Origin: an uncultured Acidobacteriota bacterium
GTDB taxonomy: Bacteria > Acidobacteriota > UBA6911 > CAINFC01
Length of the DNA stretch: 16,274 nt
Direction: 5' to 3'
NCBI GenBank assembly: GCA_964617125.1
Contig: CAZTVS010000108.1
Location: forward strand, 1-16,274
Positions 1 through 15,242 of the stretch are shown in pieces; positions within the stretch are counted from its first letter, which is position 1; every line of letters begins with the position of its first letter. The notes beneath the pieces were generated by a model that saw only the letters and a list, made by a program, of their open reading frames with translations, was not told the origin of the DNA and ran no database searches. Made by a program: the position numbers and the translations under genes.

Positions 1-195
1 CAAACGAGACAGACAATCTAACAAACTTAAAACCAATCTGTCAACAAAAAAAATCTACCGACTTCTTTCTCCAGCAGGCAGTTGAAAAAACTCTCCTGCC
101 TGAAAGGGAGTCAGTTTCTAACACGACAGATCTGAACTGTCAACGGAAATACGATTGAAAAAAATTTATTTACCTCTACACCCGATGCGGGCCCG

Positions 196-1680
196 TCAGT
201 AGATCTCGAAAAAACGCCCCGTTCCGAGTTTGTGAACCTTCATCAGGTTTGTGGAGCCACGAGCCTCAATGGGCATGCCCATAATTATGACAATAATGTC
301 TCCTCTGTGGTACCCGGATGAAAGCAGAATATTCTCCACAGTCCTGATCGCCTCATCGAGTTCAAACATCACCGGAATCCTGGTCGCGGACACCCCCCAA
401 TTGAGAGAGAGCCTGCTCTGGATCTCCCTGGATGTCGTAAACGCACGTATCGGTATGTTGGGGCGAAAACGGGAAATGAGCGTCGCCGTACTCCCGGTCT
501 GCGTAAAAACCGCAATTGCCTTGGCAGCCAGAGTCGAAGCAGCACGACAGGCCGATTCGGCAACGGCCAGTGATATGCCGGCGGCCGGAATTACCCGTTC
601 TTCCACCCCTATCCTGGCGTGATTCCTTTCCACATCTCGTGCTATCCGGTCCATCATTCTGACCGATTCGACCGGATAATCACCGGTTGCAGTCTCGGCC
701 GACAGCATGACCGCATCTGTACCGTCAATTATGGCATTGGCCACATCGGAGGTTTCCGCGCGGGTGGGCCGGGGATTACGGACCATTGATTCCAGCATCT
801 GGGTCGCAGTAATCACCGGTTTTCCGGCCTCGTTGCAGGCGGATATGATTTTTTTCTGATAAAAAGGTACTTTCTCGGCTTTTACCTCGACACCGAGGTC
901 GCCTCGCGCAACCATGACCGCGTCCGCCGATAAGAGGATTTTCTTGAAGTTCCTGAGGGCCTCGGGCTTCTCAATCTTGGCGACAACCGGAGTATTCTTC
1001 CCCTTCGAGTAAATGGTCCGCTTCAGACGATCCACATCTTCCGCGGTCCGCACGAAGGAAAGGGCAACATAGTCAACACCCGCCTCAAGGGCGCTGTCAA
1101 GATCCCTCAGGTCCTTGTCGGTCAGTGATGGTTCGGACACGACCGTGCCGGGCAGGTTGATTCCCTTGCTGTTCTTCAGCACACCTCCGGACACGACATG
1201 GCATCGCACACTGTTTTGTTCGACTGAGACAACCCGCAGTTCCATCAACCCGTCATCCAGAAGAATCCTCGAACCGTTCCGCACGTCACCGGGAAGCGAC
1301 GCGTAGGTTGTGGGTATAACCCCCCGCTCTCCCGGGACATCAGCGGTGGTAATGATCACATCCTCTCCCCTGGTCAGGGACATGGCGCCGTTGGCCATGA
1401 TGCCGGTCCTTATTTTAGGCCCCTGCAGATCGGCAAGAATGCCGGCATGCCTGCCCATCTTTTCGGAAACCGCACGGATTGAACGGATGATCTGCTGCTT
1501 TGAGGTTGCATCGCCATGGGAATAATTCAAGCGGAATACATCCACGCCCGCATTCATGAGTTGGGTGATCATCTCAGGGGGCGATGAGACCGGGCCGAGT
1601 GTGGCGACTATTTTGGTTTTACGGTATGTCTTTGACAATGTCTGGACCCGTGATTGGTGCCGAAAGATTCCACCATCCAT
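196..1680 (-). CDS. pyk: Pyruvate kinase
   Basis: The 494-aa ORF has the canonical pyruvate-kinase N-terminus (KTKIVATLGP...FRLNYSHGD) and the K+/Mg2+/PEP-binding motifs MVARGDLGVE and TQMLESM. It is full length for the family. The true start may be the TTG about 42 nt downstream, which gives the typical M-SKTYRKTKIV start, because no good SD precedes the ATG at 1680. Confidence 0.9.
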   Translation of the reverse strand: MDGGIFRHQSRVQTLSKTYRKTKIVATLGPVSSPPEMITQLMNAGVDVFRLNYSHGDATSKQQIIRSIRAVSEKMGRHAGILADLQGPKIRTGIMANGAMSLTRGEDVIITTADVPGERGVIPTTYASLPGDVRNGSRILLDDGLMELRVVSVEQNSVRCHVVSGGVLKNSKGINLPGTVVSEPSLTDKDLRDLDSALEAGVDYVALSFVRTAEDVDRLKRTIYSKGKNTPVVAKIEKPEALRNFKKILLSADAVMVARGDLGVEVKAEKVPFYQKKIISACNEAGKPVITATQMLESMVRNPRPTRAETSDVANAIIDGTDAVMLSAETATGDYPVESVRMMDRIARDVERNHARIGVEERVIPAAGISLAVAESACRAASTLAAKAIAVFTQTGSTATLISRFRPNIPIRAFTTSREIQSRLSLNWGVSATRIPVMFELDEAIRTVENILLSSGYHRGDIIVIIMGMPIEARGSTNLMKVHKLGTGRFFEIY

Positions 1681-1838
1681 TGGACATCAGCGGCAACTTT
1701 CTCCATGCTTGCCGGAAAGAAAGGTCGCTAAAATCATAGCGCACCGTTGAGCAGATGCAACTCAAACAAACAAGGTACGGCTATGCCATAAATAATTCGG
1801 GCATTCAGGCGCCGCAGCTTCAACCATCCGGCAAAAAG

Positions 1839-3464
1839 TCAGTAGAGCTGTTCGGACTTGGGCACATACCATCTGATCAGGTTGTGGGATATTCCGGCGG
1901 GAGCCGGCTCAACACCCCGAACACGGGCACTTACCACCGGCAAGGCGTCGGGAACGTACAGGAAGGTATAGGGCTGCTCATCGGCAAGTATTTCCTGAAT
2001 GCGATAGTAGGCACGCTTGCGTTTTTTGATGTCAAAGGTACTCCGCCCCTCCACAAGCAACCGATCAACCTCGTCATTCTTGAAACCGATGAAATTCAGT
2101 TCGCCCGGCTTGGTCTTGCTGGAATGCCAGACGTCAAACATGTCAGGGTCGAGAGATGTGGTCCATCCAAGTAACACCACATCAAAATTGCCCTTGTCAA
2201 CGAACTCCTTCAGAAATGCGGCCCATTCCACGACACGGATCTTGACATCAACACCCACGTATCTGAGACGTTGCTGGATGATCTGCGCCGTCAGGAGACG
2301 CTGCTGGTTACCCTGGTTGGTCAGGATGGTGAAGGAAAAGGGTCTCCCCCCCTTAACCAGAATCCCCTCACCGTTTCTCTCCCTCCATCCGGCCCGGGCC
2401 AGCAACTGCATGGCGCGTCTTGGATCGTATGGAATGTCTTTGATTTTCGGGTTGAACGCCCAGCGGCCCGGGGGAATGGGCCCATAGGCCTTGCACCCCA
2501 TTCCGAACAGCACGCCGTGAATCAGTTCATCCTTGTTGATGGCGGCAGTGATCGCCTGACGGACTAATTTCTCTTTGAACAGCGGATGCCGGAGATTGTA
2601 CCCCATGTAGACATAGCTTGAAGATGAGTAGCGATATTTATTGAATCGCGCGGCAAACTGCCGGGAGATCGTCTGGCGCATGTACTGGACCGGGGTCAGG
2701 TTCATCAGATCGATCGAGCCGGCCTTGAGCTCCATGTACATGGTTGATAGATCAGGGATAATTCTGTAGACGTAGCGCGCTATGTAGGGGCGCCCCTCGA
2801 AATAATCGGGATTCGCCTCCAGCACGATCTTCTGCATGGGAACCCACTCCCTGAACCGGTAGGGGCCCGTCCCCACCGGTTTCCGGGCCAGAGGGCTCTT
2901 GGTAATGTCCTTCCCTTCCAGCAGGTGAGCCGGTAGAATACTCGTTCCCCAGGAGGCCAGGGCCGGCGCGAAGGGCCTGGCATAGGTCACGATGACGGTG
3001 TGGTCGTCGGGAGCGGACACTCCCTTGACCTGCTTGAAATCCTCGGAATAGGCGGTGGGAGTTCCGGGATCGATGACGACTCTGTAGGTATACAACACAT
3101 CGCGGGACGTAAACGGAGCGCCGTCGTGCCATTTCACCCCCCGGCGCAGTTTGAAGGTTATTTTGAGCCCGTCGGGGGAAACGGAAAAAGATTCAGCCAG
3201 ATCGCAGACCAGCTTCAGGTTCTTGTCGTATTTGACCAGACCGTTATAGATGAGTGACGACACCTCATGGGAGGATGCATCGGTGGCAAGAATGGGAATC
3301 AGGGTGGACGCCTCACCGATCGTACCTTCCACGATGGAATCGCCGTAAACCGGCTTTTCTCTCTTATCGACGGGACGGGAAACCGGCGAAGAGTTCCGGC
3401 TGCACGCGGCAACCAGCAGAAAGGCGACGAGCAGCAGAGGCATGAACCAGTAATGACGGTTCAT
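1839..3464 (-). CDS. Solute-binding lipoprotein of ABC transporter family 5 (OppA/DppA/NikA-like)
   Basis: The 541-aa ORF starts with a signal peptide and lipobox (LLVAAC). Its length and conserved blocks (KWHDGAPFTSRDV, NPDYFEGRP) are typical of cluster-C/family-5 periplasmic binding proteins. Its start overlaps the stop of the upstream TPR gene (ATGA). Confidence 0.85.
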   Translation of the reverse strand: MNRHYWFMPLLLVAFLLVAACSRNSSPVSRPVDKREKPVYGDSIVEGTIGEASTLIPILATDASSHEVSSLIYNGLVKYDKNLKLVCDLAESFSVSPDGLKITFKLRRGVKWHDGAPFTSRDVLYTYRVVIDPGTPTAYSEDFKQVKGVSAPDDHTVIVTYARPFAPALASWGTSILPAHLLEGKDITKSPLARKPVGTGPYRFREWVPMQKIVLEANPDYFEGRPYIARYVYRIIPDLSTMYMELKAGSIDLMNLTPVQYMRQTISRQFAARFNKYRYSSSSYVYMGYNLRHPLFKEKLVRQAITAAINKDELIHGVLFGMGCKAYGPIPPGRWAFNPKIKDIPYDPRRAMQLLARAGWRERNGEGILVKGGRPFSFTILTNQGNQQRLLTAQIIQQRLRYVGVDVKIRVVEWAAFLKEFVDKGNFDVVLLGWTTSLDPDMFDVWHSSKTKPGELNFIGFKNDEVDRLLVEGRSTFDIKKRKRAYYRIQEILADEQPYTFLYVPDALPVVSARVRGVEPAPAGISHNLIRWYVPKSEQLY

Positions 3465-5155
3465 CGCTCACCCTGCTCCCCTTTGAGTCTGCGGACCTTG
3501 TCGGCCAGTTCCTTGCGTTCTGGTTCCAGTTCCAGCGCTTTTTTATAGACCCTGAGCGCTTTCTTGTTCTCACGCCGGGCAACATAGGCGTCTCCGAGAT
3601 GTTCGAGGATGGTGGAATCATCCTCCGCGAGCCGGGTGGCCTCCTCGAGGTTACTGACTGCCTCGTCAAACCGTTTCATCTTGAAGTACACCCATCCCAG
3701 GCTGTCCAGAATGAAACCGTCATCGGGTCGGATTTCAACGGCCAGTTTGAGGTATTTCAGCGCTTCGTCCAGGTTGATTCCCATCTCCGCATACGAATAC
3801 CCGAGATAGTTCAGCGCCTGGGCATCCCTTGGATTGATGCTCAGCACCTTTTTCATCCGTTCTATGGATGCCTGCCTCTTCCCGAGCGTATCATACAGCA
3901 CGCCGATACGAAAATGCAGGCGCGGTTCATCCGCAAAACGCTTCTCTGAGGCGAGAAGCAGTTCCAGGGCGGTCCCCGCCTTGCCGGCAGCTTCATAAAC
4001 CGTGGAGAGATTGAGGTAAAGCTCAATCTGATCGGGATTTGCGGCAATGGCATTTTTCAGAACATCGATGGCCTCGTCGTTCCTGCCCTTTTCCGAAAGA
4101 ACAAAGGCAATGTGGCCGATCGCATCGACATATACTGGGGAATCGGCGGGAATCTTTCTGAATTCGGTGTAAGCCCGGTCCAGTTCGCCCTTCTCCTCAT
4201 ATGCAACCCCAAGATAGAGCCTGATTGGATGGGCAGTCGGGTCCTTCTCCAGCAGATTGGTAAAGACGGAGATCGCCTCATCGTACTGTTCCAGTTCAAG
4301 ATGAATCAGTCCGATCTTCCGCATGGTTTCCACGCCGTTCAGACCTGATTCCGCGGACTGGTTGAGGTATTCCAGGGCTTCTTCCAGCCTGCGCTGCTGT
4401 ATGAGCAGCTGGATGAGACGCTGCTGAACCGCAATTCGGCTCTCATCTTCCTCAAGAAGACGCTGGTAGATTTCTATGGCCCTGTCATACTCACCAAGCG
4501 CCTCATGGGATACCGCCATGTCGATGGAAGCCTGGGTAAACTCCGGCCTGAGTTCCACTGTTTTCCTGTAGTATCCAACGGCATCACGGAAAAGCTTCAT
4601 CTGGCTGTAAGTCCGGCCGAGATAGTAATATCCCAGGACGGATTCGGGGTTAAGTTTCACCAGATCCTTGAGCGTATTGACCGCATCCTCGTACTCGAAC
4701 AGGCGGGTCAGTGAAACGGATAGATGCAGATATGCATCCTCCTTGCTGGGGTCAAGTTTTATCGCTGTACGGAGATACCCCACAGCCTCGCTGTCCTTGC
4801 CGGACGAGGCCATGATGACACCTGCCATGACGTACGGCTCGCGGTAGGCGGGATCGAGCTTGATCGCCCGGTTGACGTACTCCAGACCCTCCTGAACCTG
4901 CCCGATTTTGATCTTGTTCTCAGCCATGGCCGTATAGAGAAAAGCCGAGGACGGGTCCAGGTCAATGGCTTCCCTCAGATTGCTCAGGGCACCGACGAAG
5001 TCGCCTTCAATACTGGAAAGACGCGCACGGGAGTACAGGTAGAGCGCACGGGAACGCGCATCATGAATCTGGGGATAGGTGGAGGCATGGTCACCGACGG
5101 TGGCGCATGATGCAAGCGCCGCGGCGCACAGGAGCATGCTCAAAATAAATTTCAT
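3461..5155 (-). CDS. Tetratricopeptide-repeat (TPR) lipoprotein
   Basis: The 564-aa ORF has an N-terminal signal peptide with lipobox (ALASC). Roughly 12 or more 34-residue TPR units are visible, with recurring A..Y....G.Y.EA...Y..AL.L.P motifs. It is translationally coupled to the downstream SBP gene. Confidence 0.85.
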   Translation of the reverse strand: MKFILSMLLCAAALASCATVGDHASTYPQIHDARSRALYLYSRARLSSIEGDFVGALSNLREAIDLDPSSAFLYTAMAENKIKIGQVQEGLEYVNRAIKLDPAYREPYVMAGVIMASSGKDSEAVGYLRTAIKLDPSKEDAYLHLSVSLTRLFEYEDAVNTLKDLVKLNPESVLGYYYLGRTYSQMKLFRDAVGYYRKTVELRPEFTQASIDMAVSHEALGEYDRAIEIYQRLLEEDESRIAVQQRLIQLLIQQRRLEEALEYLNQSAESGLNGVETMRKIGLIHLELEQYDEAISVFTNLLEKDPTAHPIRLYLGVAYEEKGELDRAYTEFRKIPADSPVYVDAIGHIAFVLSEKGRNDEAIDVLKNAIAANPDQIELYLNLSTVYEAAGKAGTALELLLASEKRFADEPRLHFRIGVLYDTLGKRQASIERMKKVLSINPRDAQALNYLGYSYAEMGINLDEALKYLKLAVEIRPDDGFILDSLGWVYFKMKRFDEAVSNLEEATRLAEDDSTILEHLGDAYVARRENKKALRVYKKALELEPERKELADKVRRLKGEQGER

Positions 5156-5244
5156 TGTAAAATAGGTCCGTTTCTTTAAAAATTGTAAAAAAAACTAGCA
5201 TGAATCCATACATGCGTCAAATGAATATCAATGACTCCAACACC

Positions 5245-5273
5245 TTGCTACGGAGGCGGTTTGATGTTAATCT
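5245..5273 (+). promoter_or_regulatory. Candidate sigma70-type promoter for the 5295-11236 operon
   Basis: TTGCTA (5245-5250), a 17-nt spacer, then TAATCT (5268-5273) with an upstream TG, about 20 nt before the ATG at 5295. It lies in an AT-rich divergent intergenic region. This is motif-level evidence only. Confidence 0.3.
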
Positions 5274-5294
5274 TTAGAGCAATAATGGGGCTCC

Positions 5295-6857
5295 ATGATG
5301 ATACGAAGCGCTCTAAAATCACTGCTGAAACCGGAAGCATATCCTGAGCCTACCACCAGGGTCGACCTGGTGCAAACTCATGTCTCATGGATATTTCTCA
5401 CCGACACCCATGCCTACAAGATCAAGAAACCGGTTGATTTCGGTTTTCTCAATTTTTCAAGTATAGATCGACGTAGATTCTATTGCAACGAAGAGGTAAA
5501 GTACAATAGGCGTCTTTGCCCCGACATGTACGTGGGAGTCGTGGAACTGCGCAAGACTCCCACGGGCGCCGGTTTTCTGGGAACCGGCCAGATAATAGAC
5601 TATGCGGTCAAAATGAAACGGCTTCCGGCGGAGGGAATGCTTGACCGTCTCATCGGAAACAACGCCGTGTCGGCAGCGGAGCTTCGGGCAGTTGCCCGGA
5701 TGATCGCCGATTTTCACCAGACAGCTCCGACATCGCCCGCCATCTCAGAGTACGGGGGCGTTGACCGCATCCTCCGCATTTGGACTGAAAACTTAGAACT
5801 GACTGTTCCCTTTGAGAGCAGCACCCTTCCGGCGACAGAACGGGAATTGATCAGGGAATGGGTATTCTCGTTCACGGAACGTAATGCCGGCCTGTTTGAA
5901 AGGAGAATCCGGAACGGTTTCATCCGTGAATGCGATGGCGATATCCACCTGGAGAACATCTGCCTGGTCAACGGCGCAATCTACATATTTGATTGCATAG
6001 AGTTCAGCGACCGCTTCCGCTGCTGCGATACCGCCTCGGATCTCGCATTCCTGCTCATGGACCTGGATTTTCACGGTCGCCGTGACCTGACCACGGAAGC
6101 CATGGCAGCCTATCTTGACTCTTCGGGCGATGAGGAGATGTTCGCCCTGCTGGATTTCTATAAGATCTACCGAGCCTTTGTGCGTGGAAAAGTTGAAAGC
6201 CTGAAGGCGATGGACATCGGCATCGACCAGCAGGCCCGCGCTGCGGCCACCCAGAAAGCCGTCAGGTATTTCAGGCTGGCGCGTGGTTATATCGAGCGGA
6301 CCAGGCTTCCGACCACCCTTTTCATAACATGCGGCCTGACGGGCTCCGGGAAAAGCACTCTTGCCGACCAACTCTCCTTCGAACTGGGAATCCCCGCTTT
6401 CAATTCCGATATCATCCGCAAACAGATGGCGGGGATCTCCCCTTTAACGCCGGCCCCTGCCGCTTTCGGTGAGGGAATTTACTCCCCGCAGGCCAATGAA
6501 CAGACCTACGACGAACTTCTGAGACTGGCTGAGCAGGAGATTTCGGCGAGCCGCTCGGTCATAATCGACGCCTGCTTCATCCGCAAAGCCGACCGCGCCA
6601 GGTTCGCGGCAGCGGCGCAGCGCTACGGAGCGCGTTTCGTAATCATGCATGTCTCGTGCAGTGAGGCGATCAACCGGCGCAGACTCAGCGCCCGCTCTGC
6701 GTCGGGCCGATCCGTATCGGACGGCAGGGCGGAAATATTCGGCGTTCAACGCCAGATGTTCGAACCACCGGAAACGGAAGAAGGCCGGATCATACCGGTC
6801 CGTACCGTAACGGCGCCATCAAGGCTTACCAGCATGGTATACGAAAGGCTGGCCTGA
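5295..6857 (+). CDS. Bifunctional kinase: N-terminal aminoglycoside-phosphotransferase-like (APH/protein-kinase-like fold) domain fused to a C-terminal P-loop kinase (AAA_33-like) domain
   Basis: The 520-aa ORF has an APH-type catalytic loop (CDGDIHLENI) and downstream IFDCIEFSDRF...DLAFLLMDLD in the N-terminal half. The C-terminal half has a Walker A motif (GLTGSGKST). The stop at 6857 lies 1 nt before the next ATG. Confidence 0.75.
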   Translation: MMIRSALKSLLKPEAYPEPTTRVDLVQTHVSWIFLTDTHAYKIKKPVDFGFLNFSSIDRRRFYCNEEVKYNRRLCPDMYVGVVELRKTPTGAGFLGTGQIIDYAVKMKRLPAEGMLDRLIGNNAVSAAELRAVARMIADFHQTAPTSPAISEYGGVDRILRIWTENLELTVPFESSTLPATERELIREWVFSFTERNAGLFERRIRNGFIRECDGDIHLENICLVNGAIYIFDCIEFSDRFRCCDTASDLAFLLMDLDFHGRRDLTTEAMAAYLDSSGDEEMFALLDFYKIYRAFVRGKVESLKAMDIGIDQQARAAATQKAVRYFRLARGYIERTRLPTTLFITCGLTGSGKSTLADQLSFELGIPAFNSDIIRKQMAGISPLTPAPAAFGEGIYSPQANEQTYDELLRLAEQEISASRSVIIDACFIRKADRARFAAAAQRYGARFVIMHVSCSEAINRRRLSARSASGRSVSDGRAEIFGVQRQMFEPPETEEGRIIPVRTVTAPSRLTSMVYERLA

Positions 6858-6858
6858 T

Positions 6859-7116
6859 ATGCTGAAGCGACTGCGCCTGATGCTGCTGCATCGTCTGCAA
6901 TTGCGGGAATCATGGATTATCTTCTTCATACTGGGTCTTATCCTGATCAATTTTCCCTTTCTCGGTATCTTCAATAAATCCGAAACGATCCTGGGCATTC
7001 CGCTCCTTTTCCTGTACCTTTTCGTCGGCTGGGGAACATCCATATCCGTGATCTACCTTTTTACCCTGGCTTCCGGCAGCACGGACGCAGCTTCCACGGA
7101 GAAACATCAGCCGTGA
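6859..7116 (+). CDS. Small two-helix membrane protein, DUF4212-like putative small subunit of a sodium:solute symporter
   Basis: The 85-aa ORF has two hydrophobic helices (IIFFILGLILINFPFLGIF and LLFLYLFVGWGTSISVIYLF). It lies immediately upstream of the SSS-domain gene and is translationally coupled to it through a GTGA overlap. This is the usual arrangement for small subunits of SSS transporters. Confidence 0.55.
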   Translation: MLKRLRLMLLHRLQLRESWIIFFILGLILINFPFLGIFNKSETILGIPLLFLYLFVGWGTSISVIYLFTLASGSTDAASTEKHQP

Positions 7117-10100
7117 CCAACGGCCTTATCCAGACCTCGCTGATTACCATGCTCTATACCCTGCTGATCTTCCTGATCGCCTGGTATGCCCATTACCGCA
7201 AAGAAAACGGCCGGAGTATGGTCGCCAATCCGTACATCTATACCCTCTCCATCGCGGTCTACTGCACGGCCTGGACGTTCTACGGCAGTGTCGGCAAGGC
7301 GGCGACAACCGGAATCGATTATCTCCCGATCTATCTGGGTCCTTCCCTCACGGCATTCGCATGGATATTCCTGCTGCGACGCATGATAAGGATCAGCAAA
7401 GAGAACAACGTAACATCCATTGCCGACTTCATCAGCCTGCGCTACGGCAAGTCTCCCTGGCTGGGAGCGCTCGTAACCGTTCTGGCGATTCTGGGCATCA
7501 TGCCCTACATCGCCCTTCAGATCAAAGCGGTGTCCACCAGCTTCCATCTCTTGAGCGGAAACGTTTTTCCGCCTGATTCGATCCCGTTTTCACGCGCCGC
7601 GTACGGCGCCTCGCTCCCTAGCGGCCTCCTCCTTTCCCTGATCCTGTCGCTGTTCGCCGCCATCTTCGGAGCCCGCAGGCTGGTTTCTTCCGAACGTCAC
7701 GAGGGACTCATCGCGGCGATCGCGCTGGAATCCGTGGTGAAACTGGTGTGCCTGCTGGGTGTGGGTATTTTTGTCACGTACTGCCTTAACGACGGATTTG
7801 TTGACATTTTCATGAAGTTTCGACAGTTTAACCCCGTTGACTTCAACCGACTGATGACCATCGGCGCGAGCCGGTTCCCCGGTGACACGGTTCCCCCATT
7901 CACCATGCTGTTCATGTCCATGGGGGCAATAATGCTCTACCCCCGCCAGTTCCACGTCATGGTGATCGAAAACTCCACAGAACGCCATATAGAAAGGGCC
8001 ATGTGGCTCTTTCCGCTCTATCTCTTCCTGATCAACCTTTTCATCATTCCCATTGCCCTGAGCGGCATAATGATCACCGGCACTGCCGATAATGCCGATT
8101 TCTTCGTCCTGAACATTCCGCTCCTGACCGGGCATCGCACCATCGCGACATTGGCGTATCTGGGCGGACTCGCCGCGTCGGCAGGCATGGTCGTGGTTGA
8201 ATCCATCACCATATCCACCATGCTTCTCAACTACATCTTCATGCCGGTCATAGTGCGGCTGAAGCCGCGCAGCTGGTTCCCCCATCTGCTGATCAACCTC
8301 AAACGGTTCGGCATCTTTCTGGTCATCTTCCTGGGATACCTCTACTACCTCTTTGCCGGCAACGCCTTCACCCTCTTCAAACTGGGAATGTTTTCCTTCT
8401 CGGCCATAATCCAGTTCATGCCGGCCGTGCTGGGGGGGGTCTACTGGAAACGCGCCAATCGTACGGGAGCGATCATCGGCATTCTCTCCGGCCTGATCAC
8501 ATGGCTGTACACACTCTTTCTGCCGTCTCTGGGAAACGTCCGCGGGATTCGGTTGGACGCCCTCAACAACGGCCCCTTCAATATATCCCTTCTCAAACCC
8601 ACCGCTCTCTTCGGCCTTACCGGCATGGACCCGTGGAGCCACTGCCTGTTCTGGAGCATGCTTTTCAACATCGGCGGTTATATCGCGTTTTCGATTCTGC
8701 TGACTCAGGATGAGCAGGAGAGGAACCATGTCAGAAAGTTCATCGGCACTTTCGAGACGGAACGTCGCAAGCGCCTCCATGGAGAGACGAGTCGGCTTTC
8801 CAAACCCGTTACCATAACCCAGTTCACCTCCCTGCTGGCAAAATTTATCGGGGACCAGGAAGCAGAGCATGCCATCAACGGCTATATCGGAAACCGGAGC
8901 ATCGACAAGGGCGGCCACATCTCCGAATTCGAGCTTCCGAACCTGAAGCGCTTCACGGAAAAAACCCTTGCCGGATCGGTTGGAGCGGCTGCCGCCGGCG
9001 CCATCGTGGACAGTTATCTGTCGGACATGGGCTCACGCATGGAACTGGTCTACGACATCTTCAGCAACGTGAGGAGTTCCCTGGACCAGAGCCGTGAGGC
9101 CCTGTTTGTCCGCCTCAAGGCCTCGGAGATCATCAATCGCACCCTGGATCTGCGCATCATCATGGATGACCTTCTCGAACTCCTCATGAGGGAATTCAAG
9201 CTCGATCTGGCAATGATCTTCCTCCGGGACAATCAGGGCAATCTCACACTGGCCAGCGCCAGAGACAGAGAAGATAACGCCGCGCCGGCGGGGCAGTGGC
9301 TGAATGAATGCAGGGATGTGTGCGAGATGGTGGCAAACAGAGGCAAATCGTACGTCATCAACGACACATCAACCGATATCCAGGCGGAAGCTTTCCGCTT
9401 TGACTTCCTGGCCAGGGCCGTGTCATACGCCTACATCCCCATTCTGCGGGAGGGAGAGAAATCTCCGGGGATTCTTGCCGTTTTCTCAAATGCAATCCCG
9501 GGCCTCTTTACTGAAGAATTCATCGGACTTCTGGAAAGCCTTGCCGGCCAGCTTGCGCAGGCCATCGCCATCACGCGCGAAATTGAGGCCAAGGAACGGG
9601 AGCGGACCCAGAAAGAGCATGCCCTCATGCAGAACGCCCGTATCAGGCGGGACATGGAGATAGCCCAGCAGATACAGCTCTCCCTTCTTCCGGCAGCACC
9701 GCCACAACTTTTCGGGGTGGAGCTTGAGGGACGCTGCATCTCCGCGGCCCATGTTGGAGGGGACTACTACGATTTTTTCCGGCGTGACGACAACACCGTC
9801 GATATTTTGATTGCGGATGTCTCGGGACACAGTGTGGGAGCGGCGCTAATCATGGCTGAGGCGCGGACCCTGCTCAAACCCCAGATCAACTCGTCCCACA
9901 GCGCTTGCGCCATCCTCAAGCTGCTGAACAACCAGCTTTACGACGACCTCACCCGGGCGGAACTGTTCATCACCATGTTCTACGCCCAATACAACTCCGC
10001 CACCGGACGTCTCTCCTACGCGAATGCAGGCCACAACCGCCCGCTCGTCTGTCGCGAGGGAGAGGGGGACTGCATCCAGCTGGATGCCGAAGGGCTCATA

Positions 10101-10370
10101 ATCGGCGTCAGGCCGACCGTTGTTTTTGAAGAGCGAAGCATAGAACTCGTGCGGGGTGATGTGGTATTATTCTATACCGACGGCCTGATCGAAGCCACAA
10201 ATCCCGGGGGGGAACAGTTCGGAATTCAGAGAATCTGTTCAAGGTTGAGGGAATTTCGCGATCTCACAGCAAAGGAGATCATAGACTCATTGTACTCATC
10301 AGTGTCGGAGTATACCGGTCTTGGCGCCTATCAGGACGACATCTCCCTGGTGATACTGAAGATTCTCTGA
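7113..10370 (+). CDS. Membrane sensor phosphatase: sodium:solute-symporter (SSS) domain, GAF domain and PP2C/SpoIIE-type serine phosphatase (RsbU-like)
   Basis: The 1085-aa ORF starts with a GTG at 7113. Residues 1-520 are polytopic membrane and SSS-like (YGSVGKAA..GIDYLPIYLG, multiple TM helices). Residues 660-830 form a GAF-like fold (LDLRIIMDDLLELL...LDLAMIFLRD). The C-terminus carries PP2C motifs (GGDYYDFF, ILIADVSGHSVGAAL, FYTDGLIEA, DDISLVIL). Confidence 0.85.
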   Translation: MTNGLIQTSLITMLYTLLIFLIAWYAHYRKENGRSMVANPYIYTLSIAVYCTAWTFYGSVGKAATTGIDYLPIYLGPSLTAFAWIFLLRRMIRISKENNVTSIADFISLRYGKSPWLGALVTVLAILGIMPYIALQIKAVSTSFHLLSGNVFPPDSIPFSRAAYGASLPSGLLLSLILSLFAAIFGARRLVSSERHEGLIAAIALESVVKLVCLLGVGIFVTYCLNDGFVDIFMKFRQFNPVDFNRLMTIGASRFPGDTVPPFTMLFMSMGAIMLYPRQFHVMVIENSTERHIERAMWLFPLYLFLINLFIIPIALSGIMITGTADNADFFVLNIPLLTGHRTIATLAYLGGLAASAGMVVVESITISTMLLNYIFMPVIVRLKPRSWFPHLLINLKRFGIFLVIFLGYLYYLFAGNAFTLFKLGMFSFSAIIQFMPAVLGGVYWKRANRTGAIIGILSGLITWLYTLFLPSLGNVRGIRLDALNNGPFNISLLKPTALFGLTGMDPWSHCLFWSMLFNIGGYIAFSILLTQDEQERNHVRKFIGTFETERRKRLHGETSRLSKPVTITQFTSLLAKFIGDQEAEHAINGYIGNRSIDKGGHISEFELPNLKRFTEKTLAGSVGAAAAGAIVDSYLSDMGSRMELVYDIFSNVRSSLDQSREALFVRLKASEIINRTLDLRIIMDDLLELLMREFKLDLAMIFLRDNQGNLTLASARDREDNAAPAGQWLNECRDVCEMVANRGKSYVINDTSTDIQAEAFRFDFLARAVSYAYIPILREGEKSPGILAVFSNAIPGLFTEEFIGLLESLAGQLAQAIAITREIEAKERERTQKEHALMQNARIRRDMEIAQQIQLSLLPAAPPQLFGVELEGRCISAAHVGGDYYDFFRRDDNTVDILIADVSGHSVGAALIMAEARTLLKPQINSSHSACAILKLLNNQLYDDLTRAELFITMFYAQYNSATGRLSYANAGHNRPLVCREGEGDCIQLDAEGLIIGVRPTVVFEERSIELVRGDVVLFYTDGLIEATNPGGEQFGIQRICSRLREFRDLTAKEIIDSLYSSVSEYTGLGAYQDDISLVILKIL

Positions 10371-10411
10371 GCTTCTTTTATCCGTAGCAAATGATCGGAT
10401 CAACCATCTGT

Positions 10412-10420
10412 TGTTATAAT
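10412..10420 (+). promoter_or_regulatory. Candidate extended -10 element (TGtTATAAT), possible internal promoter for the STAS/kinase genes
   Basis: A perfect TATAAT at 10415-10420 is preceded by TGt (10412-10414). It sits 23 nt upstream of the ATG at 10443 and 40 nt downstream of the phosphatase stop. No good -35 is present, which is typical of extended -10 promoters. Confidence 0.35.
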
Positions 10421-10442
10421 GAACTGCCATAAAGGAGTGAAC

Positions 10443-10778
10443 ATGAACCTGAAGATTGAAGCGGTCGGCAGCCGCATGATTATCGCCGTACAGGAAGAGA
10501 GGCTTGACGCCCACAACTCCGACGAGTTGAAGACCGAAATGAACAGGCTTTTCTCCGAGGGGGCGAAGGATCTGATCCTAGACCTCAAGGATGTGCGTTT
10601 CATTGACAGTTCAGGGCTGGGAGTACTGGTTTCCGGATTCAAGAACGCCTCGACCCGCCAGGGTTCTCTCAAGCTCGCGGGACTGCAGACGCAGGTGAGA
10701 TCGATGTTTGAACTGACCCGGCTGCACCGCGTCTTTGACATCTTCCAGACAACTGACGAGGCGCTGGACAGTTATTAA
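10443..10778 (+). CDS. STAS-domain anti-sigma-factor antagonist (RsbV/SpoIIAA-like)
   Basis: The 111-aa protein starts at the ATG at 10443, which has a strong SD (AAAGGAG, 10431-10437). The track ORF start at 10419 lies inside the -10 box. It carries the conserved phosphorylatable serine motif (FIDSSGLGVLV) and has typical STAS length. Its stop overlaps the next start (TAATG). Confidence 0.85.
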   Translation: MNLKIEAVGSRMIIAVQEERLDAHNSDELKTEMNRLFSEGAKDLILDLKDVRFIDSSGLGVLVSGFKNASTRQGSLKLAGLQTQVRSMFELTRLHRVFDIFQTTDEALDSY

Positions 10779-11236
10779 TGAATAGTTTCAGTCTGAGCGG
10801 GCAATTCATGAAAAATGAAATCGAGATCAACATCAGAGTACCCAATCAGACGCGCTACCTGAGCCTTATCGGAAGGATCGGCGAATACATGGCGCGGGAA
10901 GCCTGCAGGCTGCCGGATGACAGGGAGTCCCTGGCATTCAACATGAACGTGGTGCTTACGGAGGCCATGACCAACGCCATAAAACATGCAAACGCGGCAG
11001 ACCCGAACAAGGAGGTCCAGATCTGCATCAGGATATCAAAGGACGAGCTTGATATCATGGTATACGACAGCGGCCAGGGATTCGATCTCAATGCGATTCC
11101 CTGGCCGAAGTTCGATTCCGACTGCCTGGATGAAGCCGGCCGAGGAATCTTCATCATCAGATCCCTGATGGACTCGGTGGTATACGAGAAGGCGGATGGC
11201 GGCAACGTACTGAGGATGAAGAAGGGCCTGAGGTAA
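10778..11236 (+). CDS. Anti-sigma regulatory factor / serine protein kinase (RsbW/SpoIIAB-like, GHKL HATPase_c)
   Basis: The 152-aa ORF has an N-box (EAMTNAIKHA), a G1 box (DSGQGFD) and a G2 box (GRGIFIIRSLMD). Its size and its position after a STAS gene are typical of partner-switching kinases. Confidence 0.8.
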   Translation: MNSFSLSGQFMKNEIEINIRVPNQTRYLSLIGRIGEYMAREACRLPDDRESLAFNMNVVLTEAMTNAIKHANAADPNKEVQICIRISKDELDIMVYDSGQGFDLNAIPWPKFDSDCLDEAGRGIFIIRSLMDSVVYEKADGGNVLRMKKGLR

Positions 11237-12360: not shown

Positions 12361-14883
12361 TTACGATTTTGAGGCCGAATCCAATGACTGCGAATCATTC
12401 TTTTTCAAAAGAGCGGGGAGATCGACACCCGGCAGCAGCCTGGTCAACGTTCCCATCAGTCCGTCCGCGGCGCTGGCGCCACCCGTTACCAGTACATCCG
12501 GCACGATCTTGATCCGGCCGCTTTCGATGGCCGCGGACAGCAGCTCCACGATCCTGATCTGCCTGATCGCCTCTTCGCCGATCGCCTCCTGCTGCTTGTT
12601 GTAGGCCTGGGCGGTTGCCTCGCCGATGGCCGCGATCTTGGATGCCTCGCCATCGCCGATAGCCCTCAGCCTCTTCCCCTCGCCCGTCCCTTCCAGCGCC
12701 TTGGCTTCCGCCGTACCCTCCGCAAGAGTGATCATCTCGGTCTTCTTCTGGGTGGCCACTTTCACCGCGATCTCCGATGCCACCAGCGTGGGCTGCTGGT
12801 CGGCAGTGGCGCGCATCTTCTCCATCTCGGTACGCTCGGCCTGCGACCTCTGCTCCATCCGGTACATCTCCTGCTGCTGCTCGGCGATGATGCGCTTGGT
12901 CTGGGTCTGCATGAGATCCTCCGGGAGCTTGATCTGGCAGATCAGTACCGACACGCACTCCACGTGGTAGCGCTCCAGATCGGCCCGGGCGCGGCTCTCG
13001 GCCTTGGCCTGCTCCTCGGAACGGCTCTGCAGGAAGTTCATGGCGGAGGCCGTGGAGGCCTGGTTCCTGAAGGAGGAGTCGATCATGGGATGGATCACGT
13101 GCTGGATGAGGTTGTCGATGGAACCGACCTTGGCGACCATGTAGGGCGCCTGATCGGGGCGGACCCGGATAACCACCTTGACCGCCACCTGGATCGGGAA
13201 GCCATCCTTGGAGATGACGGAAAGCTGATCGAAACGGGTGTCATCCTGATCATCCCAGTCGATGGTGATGTTGGTGGTGTCGATGATATAGACCATGAAG
13301 GCCCGGCGGTTGAGGTAATAGCGCCCCGGTCCGGCCACCTCCTCCTGGATGCCACGGTACCCCTTGGGAACGACGTACTTCTCCTTCCCCTCTTCCACGG
13401 AAGCCCCGAGTTGAGTCGAGCCGAGCCGTTTCTTCATCTCCTCCGTCGGATCATCTCCCACGTTGGAAACTATGACTCCGACCTGGCCGCGTTCGATAAC
13501 GGCCACGTTGTCCACTTCGACGCTGAACATGAAGTGGTTGATGTAGTAGGTCCCGGGTCTCAGCACGTCGAGCTGCGGGCCGCGCTGTCCCATGTTGGCA
13601 AGGAACGATGAACCGTTCTGGTAATCGTTGTGGCCGCTGACCGGCGAGGCCACGTACTCGCGCTCGGGAAGCGGAATGCCGTCCAGAGCGGTGACCAGGC
13701 CGACCTTGTTGGCTTCGACAACAATGGCGGGCGCGATCTGGATCTGAAACAGGTTGAGGTTGATGCGGTACGTGCCGGGAAGGAGCACATCGATCTGCGG
13801 CCCCTTCTGGCCGCCGTTCTTCAGGAATGCCTCGCCATTCTCGTAGTTCGAGTGTCCGCCCACGCTCTGGGCCAGGAGCCGGCCCATGGGGATGGGAGCA
13901 CCGTCCTGGGCGGTGACCATCCCCACCTCCCCCTTGGCGATCACCACCGCCCCGGCGTTAGTAACCTTGAACAGGTTGGGATGGATGCGGTAGACGCCGG
14001 GCGGCAGGATCTCGGTCTGGGGGCCCTTCTGGCCGCCGTTCCTGATAAAGGCCTCGCCGTCCTGAAAGGCGTTATGGCCGGAAACGACGGTGGCAAATAT
14101 GCGGCCGGCCGGAATTGCCGCGCCGTCGGCGGACTCGACCAGTCCGATCTCGTTTTCCCCGATCCTGGTGGCGGTGCTCTTGGTAACCTTGAACAGGTAG
14201 GGATTGATGCGGTAGTTGCCCGGCGGGATGATCTCGATCTGGGGCCCCTTCTGGCCGCCGTTTCTGATGAATGCCTCGCCGTTCTGGAAGGATGAGTGGC
14301 CTTCCACGGCCCGGGCGAAAATCTTCCCCTCGGGAATTGCCACCCCATCCACCGACTCCACAATTCCGATCTCGAAATCCTTGATCTCGGTCACCCTGCC
14401 CTTGGTGAGCTTGAAGAGGTACGGGTTGATGCGGTATTTTCCGGGAGGAAGCACTTCTATCTGGGGCCCCTTCTGGCCGCCGTTACCGATGAATGCCTCG
14501 CCGTCCTGAAAGGCATTGTGTCCGGCCACGACCTCGGCAAAGATCCTCCCCGGCGGAATCGGCGAGCCGTCCACCGATTCGATCATCCCGATCTCGTTTT
14601 CCAGGATTTCGGTAAAATAGCTCTTGGTGGCCTGGTAGATGAAAGGGATCAGGAAGTGCAGGCCGGGTCCCAGGGTCCGCGCCTGGATGCCGACCTCGTC
14701 ACCCATGGCCACGACCCGCCCTTGGGGCATCTTTTTGCCGAACCATCTCCGCTCGATCAGCGCTATTTCCCCACCGCCCACAATCACGATGGAGTTCCAG
14801 AGCAGAAAGCAGAAGATGGCAAAGGCCAGGATATAGTAGTAGTGGTGGCCGAGCCAGGAGAGCAGGGTAAAGGGGTCGTACAT
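12361..14883 (-). CDS. Flotillin/SPFH (band-7, YqiK/FloT-like) membrane protein with an N-terminal expansion of tandem 74-aa repeats
   Basis: The 840-aa ORF has an SD (GGGAGGA) 6 nt upstream of its ATG and an N-terminal TM helix. The C-terminal third is a flotillin-type coiled coil with Ala/Glu-rich EA repeats (AEQQQEMYRMEQRSQAERTEMEKMRA...AEGTAEAKALEGTGEGKRLRAIG). The core is SPFH-like. Five exact 74-aa repeats occupy residues 97-466. Confidence 0.85.
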   Translation of the reverse strand: MYDPFTLLSWLGHHYYYILAFAIFCFLLWNSIVIVGGGEIALIERRWFGKKMPQGRVVAMGDEVGIQARTLGPGLHFLIPFIYQATKSYFTEILENEIGMIESVDGSPIPPGRIFAEVVAGHNAFQDGEAFIGNGGQKGPQIEVLPPGKYRINPYLFKLTKGRVTEIKDFEIGIVESVDGVAIPEGKIFARAVEGHSSFQNGEAFIRNGGQKGPQIEIIPPGNYRINPYLFKVTKSTATRIGENEIGLVESADGAAIPAGRIFATVVSGHNAFQDGEAFIRNGGQKGPQTEILPPGVYRIHPNLFKVTNAGAVVIAKGEVGMVTAQDGAPIPMGRLLAQSVGGHSNYENGEAFLKNGGQKGPQIDVLLPGTYRINLNLFQIQIAPAIVVEANKVGLVTALDGIPLPEREYVASPVSGHNDYQNGSSFLANMGQRGPQLDVLRPGTYYINHFMFSVEVDNVAVIERGQVGVIVSNVGDDPTEEMKKRLGSTQLGASVEEGKEKYVVPKGYRGIQEEVAGPGRYYLNRRAFMVYIIDTTNITIDWDDQDDTRFDQLSVISKDGFPIQVAVKVVIRVRPDQAPYMVAKVGSIDNLIQHVIHPMIDSSFRNQASTASAMNFLQSRSEEQAKAESRARADLERYHVECVSVLICQIKLPEDLMQTQTKRIIAEQQQEMYRMEQRSQAERTEMEKMRATADQQPTLVASEIAVKVATQKKTEMITLAEGTAEAKALEGTGEGKRLRAIGDGEASKIAAIGEATAQAYNKQQEAIGEEAIRQIRIVELLSAAIESGRIKIVPDVLVTGGASAADGLMGTLTRLLPGVDLPALLKKNDSQSLDSASKS
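13486..14595 (-). repeat. Intragenic tandem repeat, 5 in-frame copies of 222 bp (74 aa), inside the flotillin gene
   Basis: The protein repeats R1-R5 each have the form EIGxVESxDGxxIPxGRIFAxxVxGHNAFQDGEAFIRNGGQKGPQIEILPPGxYRINPYLFKxT. All copies are exactly 74 aa with no indels. DNA blocks such as ggccccttctggccgccgtt recur at about 13800, 14024, 14239 and 14463. Partial copies flank the array on both sides. Confidence 0.85.
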
Positions 14884-15242
14884 GGATTCCTCCCGTCATT
14901 GTTGCGGTATTGGTCATGCGTCGACTGCCGGTGCGGTTTCGCCCTTGACGCCTAATTGGTGAAACGTTGCCAATAAAAAACAACCGGTCCGAACCGGTGA
15001 TGCCCGTACCGCACCGGGGTGTTCAGGCTCGGAAAACAGCGCCTATTCCGCCTGGCCCTTACCCACCACGAATTTCCCGGTGAAGTATTTCTTACTTATC
15101 TCGCCGGCCTCCGCCAGCCACCGTTCAGGACCGACCTTCCTGATGCGGCAGAGATTGCACACCTTCTGATTACAACGATAGAACAAAAACAATCGTTGAA
15201 TAGTAATAATTTTATTCAGCAATCTCCTTCATCGTGAGAGCT

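Follow-up and report, generated by a model that had tools for sequence, protein, structure and literature searches.

The open reading frame at positions 12361..14883 of the minus strand encodes an 840 amino acid protein of the SPFH family, in which a stack of small beta modules lies between an N-terminal transmembrane (TM) anchor and the SPFH2 core. On predicted structure, the repeats have the major vault protein (MVP) repeat fold and the whole chain has the MVP architecture, which was overlooked in an earlier, sequence-only reading of this DNA. We consider it rather likely that the locus specifies a membrane-anchored SPFH protein whose stack of SPFH1 modules builds a vault-like barrel (a "half-vault") on the inner membrane. 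A large bacterial family unites the canonical SPFH membrane anchor with a vault-type repeat stack. The window, i.e. the whole stretch of DNA analysed, is 16,274 nt long and comes from an uncultured Acidobacteriota bacterium.

The ORF list and translation give the 840 aa length stated previously, with the stop codon at 12361–12363. An identical protein (P0001) occurs in public metagenomes. A scan for promoters and terminators yielded counts that did not exceed those of shuffled controls.

The transmembrane anchor is at aa positions 14–36 (YYYILAFAIFCFLLWNSIVIV; 14776..14844, minus strand) and is seen both as a hydrophobic run in the sequence and as a helix in the AF2 model. The hydrophobic stretch has 21 residues (aa 15–35) and is predicted to be a membrane element N-terminal to the SPFH domain; AF2 shows the anchor as helical at aa 14–30. 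There are no K/R residues before the anchor and five within the 20 residues after it. By the positive-inside rule the bulk of the protein would therefore be cytoplasmic, this rule and a size argument being the two bases for the orientation. The 840-aa query and most of the complete relatives examined have such a TM helix at the N-terminus.

Five tandem units of 74 aa follow, without gaps, at aa positions 95–464. The number and length of the units are as first described, but their register is 13492–14601, which is 6 nt off the 13486–14595 given before. The array lies on the minus strand; no strand had been given for it. Tandem Repeats Finder independently shows a period of 222 nt. An HMM made from the five units scores each of them with 127–133 bits (E-values of 1e-41 to 1e-43). 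The units, all on the minus strand, are R1 (aa 95–168, 14380..14601, 132.8 bits, pLDDT >90), R2 (aa 169–242, 14158..14379, 133.1 bits), R3 (aa 243–316, 13936..14157, 130.4 bits), R4 (aa 317–390, 13714..13935, 127.9 bits) and R5 (aa 391–464, 13492..13713, 126.6 bits). Their identities to the corresponding units of orthologues are about 85%, 86%, 83%, 91% and 84%, respectively. The repeat motif quoted earlier is present literally only in R1 and R2; R3 and R4 have an approximate form of it, and R5 a degenerate one.

The same HMM detects a sixth, partial copy at aa positions 498–539 (12.5 bits, E-value = 5.6e-6) and a faint further copy at aa positions 63–93. Thus the half-copy after the TM helix and the degenerate copy ahead of the SPFH core, both of which had been proposed, are real. 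The former belongs to R0, a short canonical SPFH1-type beta module (aa 37–94; 14602..14775, minus strand). The latter belongs to R6 (aa 465–540; 13264..13491, minus strand), a degenerate copy that is the protein's own SPFH1 module. R6 carries a helical insertion of low confidence at aa 476–505, with pLDDT of 54–60 at aa 481–500.

R1–R5 display a conserved insertion of about 17 aa (GH.FQ.GEAF..GG), which is followed by a conserved QKGPQ motif. The insertion is missing from R0. The most conserved residues of the repeat (G42, G45, Q47, P53, G54 and Y56) are those of the repeat-specific insertion and the loop.

The repeat is a duplicated opening module of the SPFH domain, as was originally suggested. 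A profile of 52 repeat sequences aligned with hhalign matches the post-TM segment R0 with 92% probability (E-value = 7.5e-7) and matches R6 at the start of the SPFH domain with 90% probability (E-value = 1.9e-6, 72 columns). R0 alone aligns with positions 2–36 of Pfam Band_7 (E-value = 0.0056, under the Pfam cut-off). Since the main Band_7 match of the protein covers profile positions 4–170, the domain opening is present more than once. The repeated unit, a small module of antiparallel beta strands, is located ahead of SPFH2 and matches the initial ~36 positions of Band_7. Published ECOD-based work assigns the N-terminal domain of ordinary SPFH proteins of archaea to the MVP repeats (PMC13607799). 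The residue-level register that had been proposed for this relationship does not stand. Both the profile alignment and the model place the EAFIxNGG segment as a short helix inside the ~17-aa repeat-specific insertion, and the equivalent of SPFH strand 1 in the repeats is E(I/V)G(L/I)VE..DG. The resemblance of the repeat to AFVRTGLGGQK of YqiK is probably coincidental. Single repeats matched no Pfam family at E ≤ 10, and the repeat profile matched none of the PDB sequences at E ≤ 10.

The SPFH2 alpha/beta core (aa 541–653; 12925..13263, minus strand), the equivalent of the MVP "shoulder", is identified by Pfam Band_7 and by Foldseek. Band_7 (PF01145) matches aa positions 506–681 with 81 bits vs. 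a cut-off of 23.6, and is found in all of the 50 aligned homologues. AF2 predicts long coiled-coil helices, CC1 and CC2, after the SPFH domain. CC1 (aa 654–730; 12694..12924, minus strand) is the equivalent of the MVP cap-helix and falls within the whole-length Foldseek alignment with MVP. The MVP cap-helix is presumably far longer than the 77-aa CC1 of the bacterial protein. The CC2 helices and the E/A/G-rich C-terminal tail occupy aa positions 731–840 (12364..12693, minus strand). AF2 shows helices past CC1 at aa 737–767, 769–786, 805–815 and 821–826; this region is partly of low confidence, with pLDDT <50 at aa 728–742 and from aa 788 to the end.

The protein had been labelled a flotillin, a name that the comparisons do not favor. 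A Flot/flotillin family was not found in 50 members with Pfam at E ≤ 5, provided that the library includes a flotillin model. Nor did a flotillin model of NCBIfam, if that library has one, match at E ≤ 0.01; only HflC models appeared, below threshold. The nearest sequences of solved structure are those of HflC, at a marginal E-value of 0.005. Foldseek matches to SPFH proteins are with prohibitin, erlin, HflK/C, stomatin, QmcA and flotillin (E-values of 7e-9 to 2e-5 over ~350 columns); prohibitin, erlin, HflK/C and stomatin, with E-values of 7e-9 to 6e-7, all come before flotillin, which has 5e-6. The "YqiK" labels that homologues carry at JGI are COG-level names only.

The likeness to MVP is seen at the level of predicted structure. 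The full-length AF2 model has a pLDDT of 85–94 in the repeats and a pTM of 0.58, and displays a common five-strand pattern in all seven modules; in R0 the strands are at aa 38–44, 62–70, 73–76, 82–88 and 90–92. A model of R1–R3 gives a pLDDT of 93.3 and a pTM of 0.83. With the full model as query, the best 12 Foldseek hits are all MVP (E-values of 2.8e-16 to 1.5e-12, with ~900 columns aligned). Against the MVP R1–R7 fragment the full model gives an E-value of 9e-8 and a target-normalised TM-score of 0.62. The repeats alone also have MVP as all of their top 11 hits, with modest E-values (7e-3 to 6e-2). Thus tandem domains of predicted MVP-repeat fold are present directly N-terminal to the shoulder. 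At the sequence level, Pfam Vault and MVP_shoulder are absent from 50 family members at E ≤ 5, the family profile aligned by hhalign to human MVP (sequence identical to PDB 11dr_A) gives a probability of 4.5%, and hmmsearch of MVP with the repeat profile, filters off, gives no match.

A search for the family at E ≤ 1e-3 yielded 1374 representatives of clusters formed at 50% identity. These share the order TM–R0–repeats–SPFH with a repeat number of 2–13, and the matches occur in 321 species genomes of at least seven phyla. The database names of the family are only "SPFH/YqiK/HflC"; none of the names found mentions MVP or vault.

The earlier reading had R1–R3 nearly identical in DNA and the array possibly still expanding or contracting by recombination. 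Measured pairwise identities of R1–R3 are only 72%–74% in DNA and 68%–70% in protein, with 55%–59% at third codon positions and a longest common exact run of 26 nt. R4 and R5 have about 50% and 40% protein identity to R1–R3. A constant number of five repeats is found in the genome loci listed at 84%–89% identity, which are from several phyla, and every repeat can be paired by position with an orthologue in other phyla, at a per-repeat identity of ~83%–91%. Recent recombination or copy-number polymorphism is ruled out by the R1–R3 divergence, the constant five copies and the positional orthologues. The relatives analysed, with three, four or five repeats, have the R4 and R5 types; where a homologue has three or four repeats, these types form its second-to-last and its last unit, respectively. 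By these sequence comparisons the array is old and fixed in its clade, and is not recombining.

Recent horizontal transfer was also considered as the source of the 85%–89% cross-phylum identity, and was rejected. Cross-phylum orthologues have 84%–89% aa identity and only 43%–64% identity at third codon positions. Thus the similarity reflects strong constraint at the protein level, and transfers, if any, were not recent. Such constraint fits a protein whose surface would be mostly assembly interface.

The domain order of HflK/C, QmcA, prohibitin, erlin, stomatin and flotillin is the same as that of the 840-aa protein, i.e. N-terminal anchor, SPFH1, SPFH2, CC1, CC2 and C-terminal tail. In contrast to the single SPFH1 of these canonical cages, seven are present in tandem here, and ~450 residues are added between anchor and core. 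Solved SPFH proteins are all cages, with a subunit number (y) that is related to CC1 length (x) by y = 0.1782x + 10.22 (PMC12624060), and every one of these cages is closed (PMC12624060, PMC13100048).

In the 840-aa protein, SPFH1 (the ECOD "MVP repeat" fold) has been multiplied by duplication, and seven modules (R0, R1–R5 and R6) are stacked head to tail. Next come the SPFH2 core, the CC1 helix of 77 residues and a cap region at the C-terminus, in the domain order of eukaryotic MVP. We infer ring assembly, stoichiometry and a physiological role as follows. By analogy with the solved cages, chains may join side by side through SPFH2 and a CC1 helical barrel to form a closed ring, and extrapolation of the published regression to x = 77 would give ~24 subunits. 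In the vault the wall of the barrel is made of the R domains; here the stacked beta modules would likewise build a tall wall, reaching from the membrane to the shoulder. Such a "half-vault" on the cytoplasmic face of the inner membrane may fence off a membrane patch, with a lumen much deeper than that of HflK/C-type cages and a wall whose height would follow from the number of repeats (2–13 across the family). If assembly is as predicted, no taller membrane-bound SPFH cages would be known, the repeat number would be a natural genetic dial for wall height, and the family would allow the construction and the contents of vault-like barrels to be studied by experiment in bacteria.

The same repeats could serve without forming a wall. 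The stack may be a rigid spacer or stalk by which an SPFH ring of the ordinary kind, or an oligomer other than a cage, is kept ~15 nm off the membrane, or its GGQKGPQ loops may be partner sites; there would be no lateral contacts between repeats and no barrel. The concentration of the most conserved residues in the insertion and loop is what a ligand or partner site could produce, and cyanobacterial relatives have an extra C-terminal VWA interaction domain. We think this unlikely, since MVP builds a barrel wall from the same fold in the same position, solved SPFH proteins are all closed cages (PMC12624060, PMC13100048), and the 84%–91% per-repeat conservation across phyla exceeds the needs of a passive spacer. 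That the repeats form a beta stalk of Ig-like or adhesin type outside the cytoplasm, unrelated to SPFH, is very improbable; the protein would then be a periplasmic or surface SPFH fusion. This would be suggested by a weak summed signal for Pfam Big_14 in 9 of 50 members (best E-value = 4.8e-5) and by weak CshA_repeat matches in cyanobacterial giants. However, the two Big_14 matches that could be located, neither of them in the member with the best E-value, score 14–15.8 bits where 27 is the cut-off, and no single stretch in them is significant; the CshA_repeat matches are below threshold, and the fold searches contradict this assignment.

Two histories would account for the likeness to MVP. 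Chances are about even that it is convergent, the bacterial and the MVP lineages each having duplicated SPFH1 independently; this would leave the domain assignment unchanged. Convergence may well be what happened. Sequence comparisons give no signal to MVP, the ~17-aa insertion of R1–R5 is missing from R0 and, judged by domain length, from MVP repeats, and the repeats are closest to one another, as duplication within the lineage predicts. Duplication of SPFH1 automatically yields the order repeats–SPFH2–long helix, so that this order does not separate convergence from common descent. That the bacterial family represents true MVP relatives (a sister or ancestral grade), and that a membrane-anchored SPFH cage with several repeats gave rise to the vault by loss of the TM helix, is a more doubtful proposal. 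On that proposal, loss of the helix would have freed the N-terminal repeats and let two half-cages pair, and the origin of the vault would be prokaryotic and membrane-bound. Tall "half-vault" compartments would also, if this is true, be widespread in bacterial inner membranes and so far unrecognised there.

Comparison with eukaryotic MVP (PDB 4V60, 4HL8, 9MXV, 3GF5) shows the corresponding differences. MVP is soluble and consists of two 39-mer halves paired by their free N-terminal repeats, whereas the 840-aa protein is membrane-anchored, and its TM helix takes the place of the free N-terminus through which half-vaults are joined in MVP. MVP has nine repeats; the bacterial protein has seven modules, five of which are 74 aa long with an extra helix-containing insertion.

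Prokaryotic proteins of related design have been reported. Asgard MVP homologues, one with five repeats, have been connected to MVP both by sequence and by reciprocal best hits in structure comparisons (PMC12962969), and proteins with a single "MVP repeat" and SPFH are found across archaea (PMC13607799). Like the family described here, these archaeal MVP-like/SPFH proteins are prokaryotic and carry one or more domains of MVP-repeat fold together with an SPFH shoulder and helices. The available text describes no membrane anchor in the Asgard proteins, whereas the present family is bacterial and TM-anchored, with 2–13 copies. A further difference is that the bacterial repeats keep profile similarity to the opening segment of their own SPFH domain; thus the route from SPFH1 to "MVP repeat" by duplication is readable in the sequence.

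Bacterial "MVP homologues" with a predicted MVP-like fold have also been listed (Daly et al. 2013, PMC3762200; Sokolskyi 2019, bioRxiv 10.1101/872010). They come from BLAST searches with MVP, in which a few gliding bacteria and cyanobacteria gave proteins of ~25% to >50% identity. The annotation is band 7 for some of them (e.g. Herpetosiphon A9AUD4) and MVP/MVP-shoulder for some (PMC3762200, 10.1101/872010). Judged by their description, they are set apart from the present family, which is invisible to MVP sequence searches and is found in many other phyla.

The gene neighbourhood was compared over 80 loci of homologues. No flanking protein cluster is present in more than 8 of the 80, so there is no conserved operon partner and the neighbors give no functional clue. 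An NfeD-like open reading frame was not found upstream of the gene; it thus differs from canonical SPFH cages in having neither a nearby NfeD nor another conserved partner gene. A link to defense systems was rejected, PADLOC giving no match for the gene or its neighbors. Of the neighbors in the window, DUF2059 recurs beside homologues at 2 of the 80 loci; TatD, STAS and HATPase do not recur at any. A DUF898 protein and an M48 peptidase are located upstream both in the source contig and in Geomonas, and clusters resembling them occur in 5–7 of the 80 loci.

The SPFH-family open reading frame (window positions 12361–14883, minus strand) has a chain length of 840 aa and encloses the repeat region. 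R1–R5 are five ungapped 74-residue units at aa positions 95–464 (window positions 13492–14601, minus strand), visible when the protein is set in a 74-residue register. Tandem Repeats Finder independently reports a period of 222 nt. The perfect-length 74-aa repeats described in the sequence-only reading are thus present, in a register 6 nt off its coordinates. With an HMM of the five units, each of them scores 127–133 bits; the HMM also detects a sixth partial copy at aa positions 498–539 (12.5 bits, 5.6e-6) and a faint additional copy at aa positions 63–93. R1–R3 are 68%–70% identical to each other in protein and 72%–74% in DNA, and the longest exact run in common between units is 26 nt; the same reading was wrong in taking their DNA to be near-identical. 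R4 and R5 have a protein identity to R1–R3 of ~50% and ~40%, respectively. Third-codon identity is 55%–59% among R1–R3 vs 36%–46% against non-repeat segments. The gene displays a GC of 0.61 and a GC3 of 0.83 vs a GC of 0.55 in the remaining window, values that would fit either a gene acquired from elsewhere or a strong bias in codon use.

The Pfam SPFH domain (Band_7) is found at aa positions 506–681 (profile positions 4–170, 81 bits). R0, a short copy directly after the hydrophobic N-terminus (aa positions 32–94), corresponds to Band_7 positions 2–36 (E-value = 0.0056). Because both segments match the opening of Band_7, the array has an SPFH-domain start at either end. The half-copy and the degenerate copy previously proposed to flank the array are both found, the former being R0 and the latter (R6) the 12.5-bit HMM copy. 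A profile of diverse repeats (A2, an alignment of 52 sequences) aligns by hhalign to R0 (92% probability, E-value = 7.5e-7) and to R6/SPFH start (90% probability, E-value = 1.9e-6, 72 columns), which bears out the proposal that the repeat duplicates the start of the SPFH domain. In these alignments SPFH strand 1 corresponds to the repeat motif E(I/V)G(L/I)VE..DG, and the SPFH motif PGLHF.IPFI to PPG.YRINP.LF.V; GH.FQ.GEAF..GG is an insertion of ~17 residues present in R1–R5 only. The residue match to AFVRTGLGGQK pointed out earlier sits inside this insertion and is probably coincidental. R6 has an insertion at aa positions 476–505 (window positions 13369–13458), which is charged (PTEEMKKRLGSTQLGASVEEGKEKY), differs in sequence among homologues in the alignment consensus, and is modelled as two helices (pLDDT 54–60).

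A full-length AlphaFold2 model built from a 50-sequence alignment (mean pLDDT 77, pTM 0.58; repeats pLDDT 85–94) displays seven successive modules with a common strand pattern, A-B-C-D-E. R0 has a short A-B loop, the A-B insertion of each of R1–R5 contains a short helix, and R6 has two low-confidence helices. After R6 there is an alpha/beta core, a helix at aa positions 654–730, more helices and a low-confidence tail. The model shows a predicted architecture of a TM helix, seven SPFH1/MVP-type modules, SPFH2, the coiled-coil helix CC1, and then CC2 with a C-terminal tail.

Foldseek searches of PDB with the full model give major vault protein (MVP) for all 12 top matches (E-values 2.8e-16 to 1.5e-12), with ~900 aligned columns that encompass the whole chain. 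The MVP R1–R7 crystal fragment, which is without the shoulder, also matches (E-value = 9e-8, target-normalised TM-score 0.62). Prohibitin, erlin, HflK/C, stomatin, QmcA and flotillin come next (7e-9 to 2e-5), with only ~350 columns. A very confident model of R1–R3 (aa positions 88–330; pLDDT 93.3, pTM 0.83) has MVP chains at its first eleven ranks, with modest E-values (7e-3 to 6e-2), and no Ig-like or adhesin fold is among its fold matches. As modelled, the repeat has the MVP-repeat fold, which also resembles SPFH1 of ordinary SPFH proteins. An ECOD-based survey (2026, PMC13607799) assigns to ordinary archaeal SPFH proteins an N-terminal domain of the “MVP repeat” class (H-group 3529.1). Because ECOD places SPFH1 in this group, the two likenesses are one.

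MVP is counted among the SPFH family, and its likeness to the present proteins may reflect either common descent or a parallel duplication of SPFH1. No link to MVP was found at the sequence level: none of 50 family members matches Pfam Vault or MVP_shoulder at E-value ≤ 5, the family profile aligns to human MVP (sequence identical to PDB 11dr_A) with 4.5% probability by hhalign, and the repeat HMM does not match MVP. The repeat profile gives no match to PDB sequences, and for the 840-aa protein there is no NCBIfam model and no PADLOC match. The SPFH core is far diverged from solved members, the best being HflC (E-value = 0.005). Nothing favours the earlier label of flotillin.

A few bacterial MVP homologues are known, found by BLAST (PMC3762200, bioRxiv 10.1101/872010), and Asgard MVP homologues with five repeats are also on record (PMC12962969). 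MVP domains are still called unique to the vault in a 2026 paper (PMC13100048). Of the earlier bacterial MVP homologues, Herpetosiphon A9AUD4 (annotated band 7) is the likeliest candidate for a relative of the family. In full-text literature searches no description came up of a bacterial family that is widespread, anchored in the membrane and equipped with vault-type repeats in multiple copies; such a family is what appears to be new here.

A close-homologue search yielded 4075 matches. The repeat count in homologues, which the earlier reading had called for, is five in all relatives at 82%–100% identity and four or three at 53%–66%. Compared with the repeat at the same position in orthologues, query R1, R2, R3, R4 and R5 have identities of 85, 86, 83, 91 and 84%, vs a cross-position identity of only 64%–70% among R1–R3. 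Judged by these identities, each repeat is orthologous to its counterpart at the same position. The R4 and R5 types are the final two units in 3- and 4-repeat proteins, and copy-number variation is limited to the membrane-proximal R1-type units. Searched with a profile, 1.84 billion cluster representatives yield a family of 1374 proteins at E-value ≤ 1e-3 (780 at ≤ 1e-10); among the best 149 of the 1374, those with the complete order of TM, R0, repeats and SPFH core have 2 to 13 full repeats. The largest members are 1638–1802 aa (one from Symploca), with smaller ones of 1208–1331 aa in Okeania and Iningainema, and four of five large members scanned have an added C-terminal VWA domain. Five family proteins (P0121, P0122, P0123, P0127 and P0145) of 1279–1802 aa have 4–13 repeats, and those with source names are from filamentous cyanobacteria (Symploca/Iningainema); P0145 has a weak peptidoglycan-binding-domain match close to its N-terminus. 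The names given at source are limited to “SPFH/Band 7 domain-containing”, “YqiK”, “HflC” or “VWA domain-containing”.

Reference genomes give 321 species matches. The five-repeat form is found with 84%–89% aa identity in Geobacter, Geomonas, Oryzomonas, Syntrophaceae, Verrucomicrobiota, Sericytochromatia, Planctomycetota, a Pedobacter MAG, Caldilineaceae, Paludibacterium and Ca. Electronema; homologue loci L006–L065 represent at least seven phyla (Desulfuromonadota, Verrucomicrobiota, Sericytochromatia, Planctomycetota, Bacteroidota, Chloroflexota, Betaproteobacteria). At third codon positions these genes are just 43%–64% identical, and therefore protein constraint appears to be very strong and transfers not recent. 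The cross-phylum pattern points to unusually strong constraint plus old horizontal spread.

K/R residues are absent ahead of the hydrophobic segment and number five in the 20 residues that follow it; the positive-inside rule would therefore place the bulk of the protein in the cytoplasm. With module and helix lengths as we estimate them, seven modules, SPFH2 and the 77-residue helix would be too tall for the periplasm. The vault barrel wall consists of the MVP-repeat fold at the same position in the chain, and by analogy the repeats would form a wall from membrane to shoulder, a “half-vault” on the inner membrane, with a height set by repeat number. All solved SPFH proteins, including MVP, form rings or cages via lateral SPFH2 and CC1 contacts (PMC12624060, PMC13100048), and the present chains may assemble in the same manner. 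A published regression (y = 0.1782x + 10.22; PMC12624060) that relates the number of subunits to the length of CC1 gives, as a rough extrapolation, ~24 subunits at x = 77.

In the window, the SPFH gene is preceded by a TatD-family gene and followed by one for a DUF2059 protein, with no NfeD-like open reading frame near it. No conserved neighbour gene was found within 3 kb of homologues at 80 genome loci; an M48-peptidase-like cluster is present at 7 of the 80 and an adjoining membrane-protein cluster at 5. A DUF898 protein (with zinc ribbon) and an M48 peptidase are upstream in the source contig and in Geomonas sp. Red32 (homologue loci L002, positions 4245–6645, and L004, positions 1–5361), the latter species having a rhomboid protease in addition. 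The peptidase and rhomboid, on two contigs, only loosely hint at an involvement in the quality control of membrane proteins.

The gap that separates the SPFH gene from the TatD-family gene contains a hairpin resembling a terminator, with a T-run (window positions 14983–14998, minus strand). This suggests a separate promoter for the SPFH gene within the ~100 nt that remain, the count of such sites being not above that of shuffled controls. A signalling cluster of the partner-switching type (window positions 5295–11236, plus strand) is convergent with the SPFH gene. It encodes a 520-aa AAA_33 kinase-like protein, an 85-aa open reading frame, a 1085-aa GAF + SpoIIE/PP2C phosphatase, a STAS anti-anti-sigma-like protein and an HATPase_c_2 anti-sigma-kinase-like protein; neither the STAS nor the HATPase gene was found beside SPFH homologues in other genomes. 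A 564-aa protein at window positions 3461–5155 (minus strand) consists nearly entirely of TPR repeats (>40 TPR-type Pfam families match), and is adjoined by genes for an SBP_bac_5 solute-binding protein (1839–3464) and pyruvate kinase (196–1680).
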